NCBI RefSeq assembly: GCF_003790525.1
Contig: NZ_CP033635.1
Strand: one strand, 5' to 3'
DNA from: Escherichia coli
GTDB taxonomy: Bacteria > Pseudomonadota > Gammaproteobacteria > Enterobacterales > Enterobacteriaceae
DNA length: 64,000 nt
Positions within the stretch are counted from its first letter, which is position 1. Every line of letters begins with the position of its first letter. Shown piece after piece: positions 46,345-52,089 of this stretch. Below the pieces are notes generated by a model that saw only the letters and a list, made by a program, of their open reading frames with translations, was not told the DNA's origin and ran no database searches. The position numbers were made by a program, and so were the translations under genes.

Positions 46345-47229
46345 TCAGAACAGGCGATCCCACAGTGTGATCAGCAGGCGGATAATGCGATCACGGGCTT
46401 TGCGCAGAAGCTGCAGCATCCAGGCCGGAAAGCTGAACCGGGCAATGGCAGCGTCAAAACTCTGGCCGATGGCGTCACCAAAAGCCTGCTGTGCGTGTTG
46501 CTGATCCTGCGCAGTGCGCTTTTCATTCCGGATATGCGAATAAACCGCGCTGGTTGCCTGTGGTGGCAGGGCGTGGATCATCAGAGACACAAATGCCGGA
46601 AGATTCCAGCCGGCAGGAGCGGCTATGGGGAGTACCGGAAATGATGAAGGGAACAGGGTTGCCACCCGGGCTGTCACCGTCGCCAGTGAGAGTTCCTGCT
46701 GACGGGATGGCGTGCTGCTCTGGTTGTTCCATTCTTCAGCCGGGTGGATGCGATCGGCATGGCTGAGAACAAACAGAAAACGCGAGGGATCGGCACCTTC
46801 ATTCAGTAAAAACTGATGCATGGCGATGTCGGCAGCATACGCACGTTCATCAGCCCGCAGGATCCAGATAATCAGATCCAGTTCGGGCAGTAACTGACTG
46901 TAAAGTGCCCGGTATTCCTGATCATGCTGTGGTGTTTCGCCAGTGCCGGGCAGATCGACCAGCGTCATTCTTCGTTCACCGGGCTGAAAGGTAAGACGAT
47001 GAGCCTGACGGGTGCAGCCGTTCAGCGGATGCGTGGCGCAGACACGGGACTGAAAAATGGCATTGCACAGGCTGCTTTTTCCGGCACCGGATTTACCCAT
47101 AATGCCAATAACGGGTTCGTACTGAATGACGCTGCGAAGATGTTCAAGGATTTTCTGGCGAATTTCTTCAGGAAGAAAGGTCAGATGTGACTTTACGTGT
47201 GCGGAGAGGGAAGAATGGCTGAATGACAT
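46345..47229 (-). CDS. YeeP/YkfA/YfjP-family GTPase
   Basis: 294 aa with P-loop GIMGKSGAGKSS and DLPG switch motif; first gene of the minus-strand CP4-like operon. Confidence 0.8.
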   Translation of the reverse strand: MSFSHSSLSAHVKSHLTFLPEEIRQKILEHLRSVIQYEPVIGIMGKSGAGKSSLCNAIFQSRVCATHPLNGCTRQAHRLTFQPGERRMTLVDLPGTGETPQHDQEYRALYSQLLPELDLIIWILRADERAYAADIAMHQFLLNEGADPSRFLFVLSHADRIHPAEEWNNQSSTPSRQQELSLATVTARVATLFPSSFPVLPIAAPAGWNLPAFVSLMIHALPPQATSAVYSHIRNEKRTAQDQQHAQQAFGDAIGQSFDAAIARFSFPAWMLQLLRKARDRIIRLLITLWDRLF

Positions 47230-47329
47230 ACCGTTATCCTGTTGATTTCACTGAACCGGATCACATTAATCCGGCCTCTCAGTCAGGTAATATGGACGTG
47301 AAAATTTTTCCATTGACGGGAAGAAGAGT

Positions 47330-48553
47330 ATGGCTAAAAACAAAGGTATCTGTCGGAATAAAAAATGCAGCAATCCTGTTTCAGAATTTGATGAGGCAAA
47401 TGCCCTGAGGTTATGTGATGATCATTATCAGTTATGGAAACGAAATAAAGAGAACCGTCGGGTCAGGAATATTTGTCGTATAATCAGTAAATATGACAAA
47501 AGTCTGGACCGGGAGATATTTGACAGAGTAATAGATGCTGCAAGAAATCAAACGGGAAAGAGAATTGTTGAGGACGCAAAAATATTACATCAATTGCGCA
47601 ATTCAAAGCAAGTAAGAAAAAGTCTTCATAATGGAGTACTCCGGTCACGGGAATGGCTCAATACACAGGAGTTACTGAGAAGAAAAAATATATCTGTTAC
47701 AGGTGACTCATTTAAATCTTACATAAAGGATATTGTCAGATTATATTGCTATAAGTTTCTCTACAGCAGAGAATATCTTAATGAAAACGCATACAAAAAA
47801 CAATATCAGAGAGTTATTAACCCCAGAGAATTTAATGTTCCGATACTTCAACTTGAAGTTGCATGGATCAATAATAATTGCCGTTCAAGTGATTCAAGCT
47901 CTGATATTATCATCCTTCCCAGGATGATAAGAAGAATGGTTGTATTTAATGATACGAAGATAAATAAACAATTAGAGGAAATGTTGGGGGGGATAGCACG
48001 AAAAAAAGTCGCAGTAAGGAATAAAGGCGGTCTCTATACCAGAATAAAAAAAGAAAATGATTTTCGTTCTATGGATAGATTTATGGTGGAAATCGAAAAT
48101 ATCATAAGGCCTGAAATATTTCCGACATCAATTTACCCGCCTTTTTCACTTTCATTTATCGAGAGAGAATTGCCACTACTGAATCTGGCGCACTCACAGT
48201 ACAAAAGAGCAATAAGTAAAAAAGTGGCGAATTCAATTTTTTATACTTTGCGAAAAACTCACGTGGCATTATGGCTGCATCTTGAAATGTTTGCTCTTGT
48301 GGCATTCATCAAACTGTATACAGGAAAAGGGTTTGAATTCATGAAAAACATGTGTGTATTTATAGATTATGATAAAGGGATAATAAAATCCACGCATGAA
48401 GAACTGCTGAGTGAAATTAAGTGTAACATTCAGTTGAATTTAAAGGTGAATCCTGATAATTTTCCTGAATTAATAGAAGTATACAATTCATGCTTTAGTA
48501 AAAATATATTGTTGTATGATGTTCAGGATGATGGTTTTAAATGGTGTTTATGA
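47330..48553 (+). CDS. orphan AT-rich hypothetical protein (407 aa), Lys/Arg-rich, N-terminal C-x4-C...C-x2-H motif
   Basis: single long ORF in a visibly AT-rich tract, divergent from the GTPase gene; no recognised family. Confidence 0.6.
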   Translation: MAKNKGICRNKKCSNPVSEFDEANALRLCDDHYQLWKRNKENRRVRNICRIISKYDKSLDREIFDRVIDAARNQTGKRIVEDAKILHQLRNSKQVRKSLHNGVLRSREWLNTQELLRRKNISVTGDSFKSYIKDIVRLYCYKFLYSREYLNENAYKKQYQRVINPREFNVPILQLEVAWINNNCRSSDSSSDIIILPRMIRRMVVFNDTKINKQLEEMLGGIARKKVAVRNKGGLYTRIKKENDFRSMDRFMVEIENIIRPEIFPTSIYPPFSLSFIERELPLLNLAHSQYKRAISKKVANSIFYTLRKTHVALWLHLEMFALVAFIKLYTGKGFEFMKNMCVFIDYDKGIIKSTHEELLSEIKCNIQLNLKVNPDNFPELIEVYNSCFSKNILLYDVQDDGFKWCL

Positions 48554-50092
48554 TGTGAAAATATTAAATTTATATTACATTTTAATTATCGACAAAAAAC
48601 ACATAAAGAAATCTAAAGGGAATGAGCGTCAAATGAGCTGATATAGCGCCAGTTTGGTATGGTCATGTGATTTGATGATTAAAGCTTACGAATAATAACA
48701 CTCCTCTGTGAGCCATATAAATGAGCATGCCATAATCGTCAGTTCAGAGATAAAACTGACTGAATGATCTTATGTTATAGTAAGCAGTGTTTACCGGATA
48801 CGATGACTTATCTCTCTCACATCATATGGATTCACTTTCATGGGGTAAAGCGATGGGACTACAGACGCTGATTATGATGGTTTGCTGTAAAGTTAGCACA
48901 AGTTTTTGCTGTACAGAATACGGAGTAAGAAAAATAATTCCAGAGTAAATCTGCTCTGCTTTTGAACAGAAAAGATTCATGCTTACCGTGAAAAACTGAA
49001 ACCAACATTCAGTCTGCATGGATGTCTTAAGATGTTGAGAATGTCGGATATGGTATTATATACACCTTTTCCATTAGGTCCTTTTATGTTTTCATTAAGT
49101 CGTTTTGTATGTATTCCTCCAGTGATTCATTAGTGCCTGTTTACGCATTTACACACTTTCCCATTAATCTCCTTTAAATGTGTTTCATTACGCATTGCTG
49201 TACACATTTTTGAACTGATACACATCCAAGTTAGTAAACCTGTCAGTTCTGATTTTACGTTAACTAAATCAGTTTAATGCTGCTGTAAAACAATCCTTCC
49301 TGTTTAAGCAATCAATCTGCTATTCGATTTTACTGATGTGACGTTTAACCTTTCCTGAGCTTTGGTTGTTTGTGGTTTTTGGTTTGTGTTTCGACGTTAA
49401 GCTGAGAAAAGTATCTTTACGCTAAATCAACCCGAACTTTCCTGAGGTGATCTGACGTTCTTTTCGATGTGCTTACGACGATTCTGTTAAACGACTTTCT
49501 GGATGTTTTGATAACAATCAGATTGAGGCATTAACGATTCCTGACGTTTTGCTTTTTCATGTAAGGTCATTGTTTTCGTCATGATGTGGTTTTTCTTCTT
49601 GCATTGCGAAAGTGTGATGATTGGTTTTGGTTTTTTGATTCAGATGAGATTTACGTTATCGATGGTTAATCGTTTTTATGGTGCGTAGTGAAACGTAACA
49701 TTTTCGGGATGAGAAAATCGATTCTGATGGTGATGGGGATGATCGTGTTACGGCGTTATCTGTAAACAGGTTTTAAACGTGTCATTCGCATTCGTGATTG
49801 AGTTGTGTGATTAAGCTGTAGGTTTTGGCGTTGTTGTTGATTTGCATTGCCAGGAAGCGTTCTGGTTGCGTTTCTGGTGTTTTGTTCGAATGTTCTGTGG
49901 ATCCTTTTCCCTTCAGGCTTTTCTCGTCGTCCATGTCGTTTTTAAATCCATTCATGCTGTTGTTGCGTGTTTTGCTGCTGTGTGCAGGATTATCTTTTCG
50001 TTCCGGGATGGTTTGTTCCGTTTCAATCACTCTTAATCAGAGAGTTGTAGCATTGCTTAATGGCATGATGCCGTAAAGTTTTACCGCGGTGA

Positions 50093-50128
50093 TTAATGAT
50101 GTGAAGTCAATCCAAATCAACGGAGATC
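50093..50128 (+). promoter_or_regulatory. conserved leader motif upstream of yagK-like gene 1
   Basis: ttaatgatgtgaagtcaatccaaatcaacggagatc includes GGAG 8 nt before ATG 50136; repeated at 51034-51065. Confidence 0.4.
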
Positions 50129-50135
50129 TCTCATC

Positions 50136-50867
50136 ATGAATCAACCAATACACAATGCTTACTGGTTATCCCGTTTTGACAGCCTTCTCGACAGTGCCCT
50201 GTCGCAGCACCGTGCCGTCTCGTTAATCCGGGTGGATTTACGTTTCCCTGAGTATATGCCTGTCACCATCATGGATCCCGATCCGGATTCAGCGGTGATT
50301 TCTCGTTTTTTCGAATCCCTGAAAGCCAAAATCCAGGCTTACCAGCGGAAAAAACGACGTGCCAACAAGCGTGTGCGTGCAACCACTCTGCGTTATTTCT
50401 GGTGTCGGGAGTTTGGCAAGGAAAAAGGCAGGAAACATTATCACGTGATATTGCTGCTCAACAAAGATACCTGGTGCTCGCCAGGGGATTTCAGCGAACC
50501 ATCTTCGCTGGCGACGATGATCCTGGAGGCATGGTGCAGCGCCCTGCATCTTGAGGCCTGGCAAGGCGATGGCCTGGTCCATTTTTCCAGGTGGACGCCT
50601 TCCCGTAAACCAGCATCGTCTGATGCTCGCCCTTCTTCCGATGACACGCCTTTGTCGGGTGGATGTTCTGATACCAGGAAGGCTTCAGAAAAAAAGCCGG
50701 GTGAAGCCGCTGTTCTCTGGATCAAGCGTGGTGATGTGGAAGCGCTGCAGAAAGCCCGGAACAGAGCCAGTTATCTCGTGAAATATGAGACGAAGCAGCA
50801 TGACGGTTCCGGGCAACGTAATTATGGTTGCAGTCGTGGGCCGGGGCGTCTGCTGGATGGCAGGTGA
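50136..50867 (+). CDS. YagK/YfjJ-family (inovirus Gp2-like) island protein
   Basis: 243-aa ORF with family-typical basic stretch and VDLRFP-like block; family from memory. Confidence 0.65.
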   Translation: MNQPIHNAYWLSRFDSLLDSALSQHRAVSLIRVDLRFPEYMPVTIMDPDPDSAVISRFFESLKAKIQAYQRKKRRANKRVRATTLRYFWCREFGKEKGRKHYHVILLLNKDTWCSPGDFSEPSSLATMILEAWCSALHLEAWQGDGLVHFSRWTPSRKPASSDARPSSDDTPLSGGCSDTRKASEKKPGEAAVLWIKRGDVEALQKARNRASYLVKYETKQHDGSGQRNYGCSRGPGRLLDGR

Positions 50868-51033
50868 GCCCTGTAAAACGACATCCGGTGCCTGAGCTTA
50901 TGCTACAGGACGTTGGCTGACGCCCTTAGCTCGTTTTCTGAAAAAGTCGTCCTGAAGTCATGCAACGGTATTTTTCTCTGCTTTCGCTCCTGGAAACACT
51001 CCGTCGGTAAAACCTTACTGTCCTGCTTAATGA

Positions 51034-51065
51034 TGTGAACCGAAGTCAACGGAGATCATTCATTC
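51034..51065 (+). promoter_or_regulatory. second copy of the conserved leader motif
   Basis: cttaatgatgtgaaccgaagtcaacggagatc; the equivalent start position reads CTG followed by an early stop. Confidence 0.4.
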
Positions 51066-51211
51066 TGAACCTGCATCCGGTGTTCTTTCCCTTATCTTCC
51101 CGTTCTGCTTCGGTTCTTCACTTATTCCATCAATCTCATTCGTAAACCATAACACGTCAGCTCATTCACGGGCAGGACGCGTTGTGGGCTGCGCATAACG
51201 GAGCATATCTT

Positions 51212-51784
51212 ATGAATGCTATCCCTTATTTCGACTATAGCCTGGCCCCCTTCTGGCCATCTTATCAGAGCAAAGTTATCGGTGTCCTTGAGCGTGCGCT
51301 GCGTGAGCAGTCCGGCTCCAGGATACGGCGGATCCTGCTTCGTCTGCCGTGTGAATATGACAGTACCTTCAGCAGCAGAAAGACCTGGTTTGGTATGGAT
51401 TTTATCGAAACCGTCAGTGCGCTGATGAATGCAACCCCCGGACGCGACCTCTGCTGGCTCCTGACACGTCATCCTGAAAAACCGGAATACCACGTGGTGC
51501 TGTGCGTCAGACAGGAATATTTCGACGGCCCTGAGCTGGACCGGTTGATTCTGGATGCCTGGAGCAACGTACTGGGCTTCGCGGCACCGGGTGAAGCAGC
51601 ACCGTACCAGAAACAGATAACCCGGGATGTGGTGCTGGACAGTTGTTCACCGGACTGCGAAGAGAGACTCAAAGAGCTGATCTGGGCGTTCAGTGATTTC
51701 GCCCGCGATCGTCGTGGTGTGCGCGATCCGGAAGCCCGTTACCTCGCCGGTAATCCCTGGTATCCCGTAGCAGGCCAGCTCTGA
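51212..51784 (+). CDS. YagK/YfjJ-family paralog, N-terminally degenerate (possible pseudogene)
   Basis: ORF 51182-51784 shares family features (ILLRLPCEYD, HYHVVL); ancestral start region is disrupted. Confidence 0.5.
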   Translation: MNAIPYFDYSLAPFWPSYQSKVIGVLERALREQSGSRIRRILLRLPCEYDSTFSSRKTWFGMDFIETVSALMNATPGRDLCWLLTRHPEKPEYHVVLCVRQEYFDGPELDRLILDAWSNVLGFAAPGEAAPYQKQITRDVVLDSCSPDCEERLKELIWAFSDFARDRRGVRDPEARYLAGNPWYPVAGQL

Positions 51785-51852
51785 AAGCTCAGCTCAGCAG
51801 ATTCTCCCGCATTTGCCCAACATTCATAAATCTCACAGAGGACATTCTGACC

Positions 51853-52089
51853 ATGTTGACCTCAATGACAGGTCACGACAGCGTATTGCTGCGTGCCGAC
51901 GATCCCCTGATCGACATGAACTACATCACCAGCTTCACTGGTATGACCGACAAATGGTTTTACAAGCTGATCAGTGAAGGCCATTTCCCTAAACCCATCA
52001 AACTGGGGCGCAGCAGCCGCTGGTACAAAAGTGAAGTGGAGCAGTGGATGCAGCAACGAATCGAGGCATCACGAGGGGCAGCAGCATGA
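51853..52089 (+). CDS. alpA: AlpA-family phage/island transcriptional regulator
   Basis: small HTH protein with FPKPIKLGRSSRWYKSEVEQWM motif; alternative start ATG 51916. Confidence 0.7.
   Translation: MLTSMTGHDSVLLRADDPLIDMNYITSFTGMTDKWFYKLISEGHFPKPIKLGRSSRWYKSEVEQWMQQRIEASRGAAA

Follow-up and report, generated by a model that had tools for sequence, protein, structure and literature searches.

A 1.6-kb gene-free tract in an Escherichia coli chromosome (positions 48554-50135 of the window, by which we mean the whole 64-kb stretch of DNA analyzed here) ends in a short, nearly invariant cassette that recurs in direct orientation ahead of a second gene unit farther along the same island. The tract extends from the stop codon of a 407-aa open reading frame (ORF; 47330-48553, plus strand) to the ATG of a 243-aa ORF (50136-50867, plus strand) encoding a protein of the YagK/YfjJ or "inovirus Gp2" family that resembles replication initiators (hereafter Rep-like). 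In every locus that we fetched, the tract lies directly 5' of a Gp2-family gene, while the genes on either side vary. We tentatively favor reading this arrangement as a repeated control cassette joined to a weakly constrained, AT-rich and T/G-skewed spacer that would silence and buffer transcription. Tract and Rep-like gene together would then form a backbone module of the CP4-type integrative islands of E. coli.

The cassette (50073-50135, plus strand) consists of a palindrome, GTAAAGTTTTAC (50073-50084), followed by TTAATGATGTGAA (50093-50105), CAACGGAGATC (50118-50128) and the ATG; the GGAG within CAACGGAGATC, 10 nt ahead of the ATG, is the Shine-Dalgarno sequence. It is 97-100% conserved among 12 loci collected by BLAST, and it is the sole long invariant stretch in an alignment of 64 alleles. 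A direct repeat, cassette 2 (51005-51057, plus strand), is built from GGTAAAACCTTAC, TTAATGATGTGAA and GTCAACGGAGATC; the two copies are ~75% identical over ~70 nt, with a repeated unit of ~55 nt, whose palindrome has the form GTAAA..TTTAC. Among the 102 loci with enough downstream sequence, 39 contain a second cassette, either at ~+0.89 kb from the Gp2 ATG (22 loci) or at +4 to +10 kb (17 loci), always in the same orientation and never inverted. By our estimate, the chance of finding the 13-mer with one mismatch within 1 kb is roughly 0.002. In all loci whose downstream sequence reached far enough (every one except a locus with 149 nt only), the second cassette lies immediately 5' of a gene for a protein of ~200 aa (hyp200), followed by alpA where the sequence extended to it as well. 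The positions of the repeats thus give a backbone order of tract, cassette 1, Rep-like gene, variable cargo (0-9 kb), cassette 2 and hyp200-alpA. Judging from sequence, the cassette would be a shared operator, promoter or 5' untranslated region element, through which the Rep-like gene and hyp200-alpA may be controlled together. The last ~65 bp of the tract would accordingly be its tightly constrained cis-regulatory part, with an operator-like palindrome, TTAATGATGTGAA, and CAACGGAGATC bearing the ribosome-binding site.

The tract is common in the species. A blastn search placed it in 1877 of 5426 complete E. coli genomes, with a total of 2575 places, at most 7 of them in one genome, at 70-99% identity; the region there is either left unannotated or annotated with short hypothetical proteins. 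Intergenic length in the fetched loci is 1.45-1.75 kb, apart from one allele class with 2.36 kb. Scanning metagenome contigs for the exact invariant 41-mer that precedes the ATG gave 117 loci, which together with the earlier loci represent 86 unique upstream sequences. Sixty-four of these are "standard" alleles with a core of 866-1206 nt, whose all-pairs identity has a minimum of 0.73 and a median of 0.85. In ~20 others, which we call L004-type, an exchangeable segment of 300 bp (49648-49949) is swapped for a non-homologous segment of 1154 bp with a conserved 176-aa minus-strand ORF (L004 5029-6182; also L012, L027, L037 and ~20 metagenome loci). Further variants have a ~330-bp deletion, a 1.8-kb insertion or insertions of IS66. 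The distal core is missing from its usual place in one of the 86 sequences (L072), and a few others share the last ~190 bp only (L032 and L095, which are IS66 insertions, and L035, probably a chimeric contig).

Comparison of these alleles divides the tract into two parts ahead of the cassette. The conserved core (48915-50072, plus strand) is always directly 5' of the Rep-like gene, and is weakly constrained and mosaic. The distal part (48554-48914) is AT-rich without strand skew (G+T 0.50) and aligns only in islands with the same 407-aa gene; since the homology of all other alleles begins at ~48917-48931, these first 360 bp belong with that gene variant. The left edge of the core is marked by a 17-mer, AATAATTCCAGAGTAAA (48933-48949, plus strand), which scarcely varies in the alignments and has no second copy in the window. 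The variable hairpin next to it is weak and not significant by either RNA folding or single-strand DNA folding.

Outside E. coli islands the tract is scarcely to be found: phage records gave no match, plasmids gave four (all from E. coli), a scan of viral contigs gave nothing, and a species-wide scan of genomes yielded just two contigs, both metagenome-assembled. Gp2-family genes that are more distant have upstream gaps that are either short or long and ORF-poor with partial or no skew, and the gap upstream of K-12 yfjJ is 152 bp. With no consistent long skewed tract at those genes, the tract belongs to the E. coli 243-aa subfamily. We also observed, on the Klebsiella plasmid pRWS292.s3 (L016 1843-3988), a 42%-identical Gp2-family gene preceded by an ORF-poor region of ~2.1 kb. 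Within that region, 700 bp are G+T-rich (0.61-0.67), and one site agrees with the boundary motif GAAAAATAATTCCAGAGTAAA at 20/22 positions; the plasmid carries another Gp2-family gene 2 kb downstream. Neither the tract nor the repeated cassette is described in the literature that we searched, where Gp2-like proteins figure only as island core genes of unknown function.

An earlier note on this DNA, made from the sequence alone, had described the tract as 1.6 kb without a reading frame above about 80 codons, and our analysis bears this out. Over all six frames, the longest run without a stop codon measures 84 codons; shuffled sequence of the same composition gives 87 ± 19. The tract is simply gene-free, and its shortage of ORFs is not beyond chance; it is the second-longest part of the window without an ORF of at least 100 aa, the longest such part running off the window end. 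We found no ORF shared among the 12 BLAST-collected loci. Substitutions are spread evenly over codon phases in the tract and are biased in the Gp2 gene, which served as a control; 14 of the tract's indels are multiples of three and 44 are not; Fourier analysis gave no 3-nt spectral peak; and a six-frame Pfam search (E ≤ 1) returned nothing. The minus-strand ORF of 82 aa (49782-50030) that appears as a "hypothetical protein" in RefSeq relatives is judged not to be a gene. It has no family match and no codon periodicity, and across the 64 alleles it is open in two different frames at lengths of 26-82 aa; such varied frames and lengths fit an A/C-rich strand poor in stop codons.

The note had also preferred a non-coding region to decayed coding sequence, and this preference was sound. 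In homologous islands the intact 176-aa gene is confined to the 1154-bp replacement, which is not homologous to the sequence found here, and a tblastn search of its product against the tract gave no credible match (E ≥ 0.38). The 176-aa ORF itself matches nothing in Pfam, PADLOC or NCBIfam and has a faint match to a PHROG "transcriptional regulator" (E = 0.003). Its transcription was noted in one observation as divergent from the Rep-like gene, and elsewhere in our analysis the gene is termed convergent within the tract. We rejected a recent pseudogene as an explanation of the tract on the grounds of no conserved ORF, no codon phase, random indels and no Pfam or tblastn match. The tract is truly non-coding and is not a recognizably decayed gene.

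Base composition is the second striking property of the tract. Over its whole length it contains A 0.254, C 0.164, G 0.210 and T 0.371, with G+T rising from 0.50-0.53 in 48554-49300 to 0.657 in 49300-50050 (plus strand; T 0.41, G 0.24, A 0.19, C 0.15). The plus-strand skew to which the earlier note had drawn attention is therefore real and localized: the peak 750-nt value, 0.66 at 49318-50067, is the maximum of the 64 kb (mean 0.521, standard deviation 0.037, next best 0.624), and G+T is 0.62-0.66 in the homologous segment of all 64 distinct standard alleles. The G+C content of the tract is 0.375, compared to 0.341 for the upstream 407-aa gene, 0.531 for the downstream Rep-like gene and 0.478 for the window; low values (0.34-0.38) span ~3 kb (47.2-50.1 kb), with surroundings at 0.48-0.53. 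The two transcript strands are also unequal in their balance of C and G. Among 80-nt windows across 49300-50050, none on the sense strand has C exceeding G by 8 points, versus 53% on the antisense strand, and the antisense RNA of 49525-49975 is nearly unstructured (-9 to -16 kcal/mol per 150 nt).

The tract has diverged considerably more than the gene it precedes. Identity to the window sequence is 68-96% for the intergenic tract and 89-95% for the Gp2 gene, and divergence of the tract (23-31%) may be set beside that at third codon positions in the same pairs (8-15% for Gp2, 14% for the 407-aa gene and 24% for the GTPase gene farther upstream). Recombination has made the core a mosaic, in which two or three haplotype classes are mixed and slippage-type expansions occur, and majority-base frequency across it is fairly even at 0.8-0.9. 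Blocks at 49036-49060, 49311-49360, 49461-49535 and 49861-49885 are better conserved. Long invariant runs are limited to GTAAAGTTTTAC (50073-50084) and 50095-50140, and the other conserved elements are a few runs of 9-12 nt. The invariance of 50095-50140 is partly imposed, as its last 41 nt were the search pattern, and the run is also invariant in the set collected without that pattern. Within the skewed segment, G/T-rich microsatellite-like units (GGTGAT/GGGGAT, window 49727-49745) are expanded in some alleles, and in one allele (L006) a 14-nt unit, TGACGTTTTGTTTG, is duplicated near 49880; both indicate replication slippage.

Two of the roles that the earlier note had suggested, a structured non-coding RNA and a protein-binding array, found no support. 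An Rfam scan of 47000-52000 on both strands (E ≤ 1) gave no match. The minimum free energies of 150-nt windows on both strands lie at z-scores of -2.0 to +1.5 relative to dinucleotide shuffles, with none below -2, and RNAalifold with column shuffles on 24 diverse alleles gave a consensus of only 0 to -17 kcal/mol per ~150 nt, none of it significant. Single-strand DNA folding of the cassettes, of the terminator-like hairpin considered below and of the core boundary likewise gave nothing significant. As for an array, searches for direct, inverted and tandem repeats (the last with Tandem Repeats Finder) and for k-mers found no iteron or tandem family in the tract, and pairs only at chance level; Fourier analysis gave no period of 10-11 bp or any other; and none of the H-NS nucleation site, ops (RfaH), boxA, Chi, IHF, DnaA-box or GATC motifs is enriched. 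The strings that the note had quoted are all present, and the recurring motifs that it had listed do occur (TTTCCTGAG at 49351 and 49438; GACGTT at 49340, 49393, 49454 and 49543), but repeated 9-mers as a whole are at shuffle level (16 vs. 12.4 ± 4.5). Moreover, TTTCCTGAG, GACGTT and a fourfold GCATTGC are largely confined to this allele type, and TTTACG is mildly recurrent.

The Rep-like protein (243 aa) matches PF11726 (YagK_YfjJ_C, 3.6e-37) and PF23343 (REP_ORF2-G2P, 1.9e-10), as well as PHROG replication-initiation families (8e-8 to 3e-4); no solved structure is related to it by sequence. Its translation contains HYHVILLL and YLVKYETK, which we take to resemble the HUH and two-tyrosine motifs of rolling-circle initiators. 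Of 110 loci, 97 have an intact copy of the gene. Divergence at its third codon positions is about twice that at the first and second, a ratio suggestive of fairly relaxed constraint.

Beyond the cassette, the ~1.1-kb core and the 360-bp distal part would constitute a spacer whose action, if it has any, would come from bulk properties of the DNA and of any transcript and not from a specific sequence or fold. One such property may be that of a platform for H-NS-type silencing, as AT-rich DNA of this composition is a target of H-NS in E. coli. The tract resembles the H-NS-silenced island DNA of enterobacteria in being AT-rich over ~3 kb, in its location on a mobile island and in its fast, weakly constrained evolution. 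It differs in its strong keto (G+T) skew, for which such DNA is not known, and H-NS binding here is a prediction. The second property may be that of a one-way transcription buffer between the variable upstream cargo slot and a potentially harmful Rep-like gene. The Rho factor prefers RNA that is C-rich, G-poor and unstructured. Sense transcripts of the tract, being C-poor and G-rich, would be poor Rho substrates, and antisense transcripts, being C-rich, G-poor and unstructured, would be expected to undergo Rho termination; given this preference and the asymmetry between C and G, the tract should pass sense and stop antisense transcription.

Several observations weigh against this picture. Divergence of the core roughly equals that of the fastest silent sites, and sequence constraint on the core is close to nil. 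Segments of the tract have been deleted, replaced or interrupted in loci that still keep the downstream gene, and distant Gp2-family genes manage with short upstream regions or with long ones that are unskewed. The high-affinity H-NS motif (TCGATAAATT-like) is not enriched in the tract, and a convincing sigma-70 promoter was sought in the cassette and not found. Rare variants run against the skew, with 134 changes from G/T to A/C and 87 in reverse, for an implied equilibrium G+T of ~0.56, lower than the 0.66 observed; the skew could be an inherited relic rather than a selected property. Strand asymmetry among the rare variants is mild (C>T vs. G>A rate ratio 1.1-1.2). In favor of the picture, the skew does not extend over the island: plus-strand G+T at third codon positions of the flanking genes is 0.45-0.60. 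From the flux of rare variants and the unskewed flanks, we infer that the skew is local, old and either weakly maintained or slowly decaying. Island-wide single-strand exposure or an ongoing transcription-coupled bias was considered as a sufficient cause of the skew and rejected because of the mild asymmetry, the flux against the skew and the unskewed flanks.

The main rival explanation, which we regard as somewhat unlikely, is that everything beyond the cassette is a non-functional remnant of old cargo, of an old cassette or of a gene decayed beyond recognition, kept by linkage to the Rep-like gene and bearing an ancestral skew that is eroding. Near-neutral divergence, the many indels and slippage-type expansions, the tolerance of replacement, deletion and insertion, the absence of conserved elements other than the few 9-12-nt runs, and the net flux of rare variants against the skew all fit such a relic. 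It is harder to reconcile with a core of 0.9-1.2 kb that has been kept in 64 alleles diverged by up to 27% and in about a third of E. coli genomes: with the deletional bias of bacterial genomes, this is longer than useless DNA would be expected to be. Nor is there a detectable trace of coding ancestry, and conservation rises clearly above that of the surroundings in several blocks, 49036-49060 and 49311-49360 among them. A smaller rival, and an unlikely one, invokes transcription through the tract, in the form of a long conditional leader that would start near 49036-49065, run ~1.07 kb to the Rep-like gene and stop at 49849-49886 unless a regulator modifies RNA polymerase. On this proposal the alpA-family gene would be the candidate regulator, and the excess of G over C may shield the untranslated leader from Rho. 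A putative sigma-70-like promoter element does lie at 49036-49065 (plus strand; TTGAGA, a spacer of 17-18 nt and TATACA, with an overlapping TATGGT/TATGAT variant), scoring ~9 bits in a position-weight-matrix scan and present in 64 of 64 alleles in a block with a majority frequency of 0.93. A consensus scan also placed a terminator-like hairpin (49849-49878) followed by UGUUUUGUU at 49849-49886 (plus strand), which folds at -12.7 kcal/mol here and at -8.9 to -11.7 kcal/mol in other alleles, with pairs mostly kept in 56-63 of the 64 alleles. Together the two elements could produce a ~0.8-kb terminated transcript or a conditional leader; a long leader was among the roles that the earlier note had suggested. 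In Pseudomonas aeruginosa, AlpA is loaded at promoters and acts as an antiterminator, carrying transcription past intrinsic terminators of 5' untranslated regions (PMC7969949, PMC9371919), and here an AlpA-family gene is found at 51853-52089; the sense RNA without a single C-rich window is also in keeping with a leader. The arrangement of promoter-like element, untranslated region and terminator-like hairpin, with an AlpA-family gene in the module, is like that of the PR'-tR'/Q system of phage lambda and of PalpB-tB/AlpA in P. aeruginosa (PMC7969949). Known antiterminator leaders, however, measure tens to a few hundred nt; here the hairpin is ~0.8 kb and the gene ~1.07 kb from the promoter-like element. 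The -10 hexamer of that element, with its end at 49054-49064, lacks the final T and is weak. Changes in the hairpin are one-sided only, with no compensatory pairs, and the P. aeruginosa AlpA-binding motif GGGACGN5GGTA is absent from the promoter-like sites, another difference from those leaders. The hairpin is also missing from a whole allele class, the L004-type, which has the convergent 176-aa gene in the path of such a leader and still keeps the Rep-like gene; alleles with this convergent gene inside the tract argue that the Rep-like gene has its own promoter in the last ~190 bp. We know of no comparable bacterial leader of more than 1 kb.

A role in replication, the next of the smaller rivals, seems to us quite improbable. 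On this view, rolling-circle replication or mobilization by the Rep-like HUH protein would depend on an origin or nick site within tract and cassette, and the T/G-rich strand would be single-stranded at times. In its favor are the membership of the downstream protein in Rep families with HUH-like and YxxxY-like motifs, the two direct copies of an invariant cassette flanking the Rep-like gene and cargo, and the position of a long intergenic region before a same-strand gene II-type gene, as in the Ff phages. The Ff (f1/M13) intergenic region spans ~0.5 kb 5' of the same-strand gene II, with a T-rich sense strand and a series of stable hairpins that form the packaging signal and the minus and plus origins. 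The tract shares its position and its T-rich sense strand, and differs in its length (1.2-1.6 kb), in its location in a chromosomal island and in having neither phage similarity nor stable hairpins or strong inverted repeats; any origin role for it is putative. It is also like the double-strand and single-strand origins of rolling-circle plasmids in being non-coding DNA beside a Rep gene, for which strand-specific properties would be expected, but those origins are 100-300 nt, highly structured and conserved within families, whereas the tract has no structure or conserved repeats. Also telling against an origin are the absence of significant single-strand DNA hairpins in cassette or tract, of iterons and of similarity to any phage sequence, together with the mild strand bias of the rare variants and the unskewed third codon positions nearby. 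A reported rise in copy number of an integrase and a Gp2-family gene during gut passage of E. coli Nissle (bioRxiv 10.1101/364505) speaks for an origin, and hints that such modules can amplify. The narrower proposal that the near-invariant cassette itself (GTAAAGTTTTAC ... TTAATGATGTGAA ... CAACGGAGATC) is the recognition or nick site of the Rep-like HUH protein, with its two copies as rolling-circle origin and terminator, is very improbable; were it true, the Rep gene and the cargo between the first copy and the second, 0.9-10 kb downstream, could be copied out as a circle, with the T/G-rich tract as leader or displaced-strand region of the circle unit. We give the lowest probability of all to a long unstructured RNA as the product of the locus, either an A/C-rich antisense RNA of ~1.1 kb running from the cassette to near the hairpin at 48950-48970 or a U/G-rich sense RNA ending at 49886. 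The cassette contains a leftward promoter-like match, TTCACA-16 nt-TAAAAC, in 64 of 64 alleles, with a similar match in cassette 2, and a minus-strand terminator-like site lies at the core boundary (48970-48950). Against such an RNA, the key T that should end the -10 hexamer is missing from both promoter-like elements, the boundary hairpin is weak and without significance, and the sequence evolves near-neutrally, with neither a conserved structure nor an Rfam family; Rho should in addition cut an untranslated C-rich RNA short.

The island around the tract is partly recognizable. The locus adjoins cadC in the E. coli chromosome, and on the basis of a 99.8%-identical annotated genome we infer a CP4-type island from ~41 kb onward. 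Left of the tract, the minus strand encodes CbtA/YeeU, DUF987, RadC, antirestriction, DUF932 and YeeP/YfjP-GTPase proteins. The plus strand carries, in order, the 407-aa gene, the tract, the 243-aa gene, hyp200 and the AlpA-family gene. The slot between the GTPase gene and the tract (window 47330-48553; L002, L008-L011) differs in content from island to island, with genes unrelated to one another (407 aa; 316 aa plus 262 aa; 376 aa; 306 aa) and none with a family match, and the slot downstream of the Rep-like gene varies among YfjI, a restriction endonuclease, a TIR protein, ireA and an acyltransferase. Both slots look like cargo hotspots, and searches of the variable neighbor genes against Pfam, PADLOC, PHROGs and NCBIfam were uninformative. 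The same kind of island, with cargo beside the module, is represented in K-12 by the alpA-yfjI-yfjJ module of CP4-57, which likewise combines AlpA, YfjI/DUF3987 (found in sister alleles of our locus) and YagK/YfjJ. There, however, the order is alpA-yfjI-yfjJ and the 152-bp gap at yfjJ has no skewed tract; the 243-aa subfamily that has the tract is only ~30% identical to YagK.

Some further observations concern the ends of the island. ARAGORN found no tRNA gene in the whole 64-kb window, although the island adjoins cadC (window 40339-41114), where pheU is normally located. The adjoining island end in the 99.8%-identical genome has a fragmentary integrase gene and several genes with frameshifts, namely those for DUF4942, CbtA and an antitoxin. 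At the other end, 3' of the alpA-like gene (~52.8-58 kb, with contents taken from the annotation of a near-identical genome, L001 12469-17471), are a frameshifted ProQ/FinO-family gene, copies of IS1 and IS2, transposase fragments and a truncated YadA-like adhesin gene. The island is heavily decayed at this end.

The analysis gives no evidence of an unusual mechanism; what it describes is a very common, unannotated feature of a poorly understood island family. For annotators there is a warning in it, as the short "hypothetical proteins" called within the tract are artifacts of a stop-poor, A/C-rich strand. CP4-type islands bring virulence, iron-uptake and anti-phage cargo to a large share of E. 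coli genomes, often in several copies, and their backbone functions (Rep-like YagK/YfjJ, YfjI and AlpA) are almost unstudied. The analysis shows two things about this backbone: a long non-coding tract, left without annotation, accompanies the Rep-like gene throughout, and a ~55-nt cassette is repeated before two backbone units, where it delimits a cargo slot. Tract and cassette thereby offer concrete cis elements for regulation, excision-linked replication or cargo exchange in these islands.

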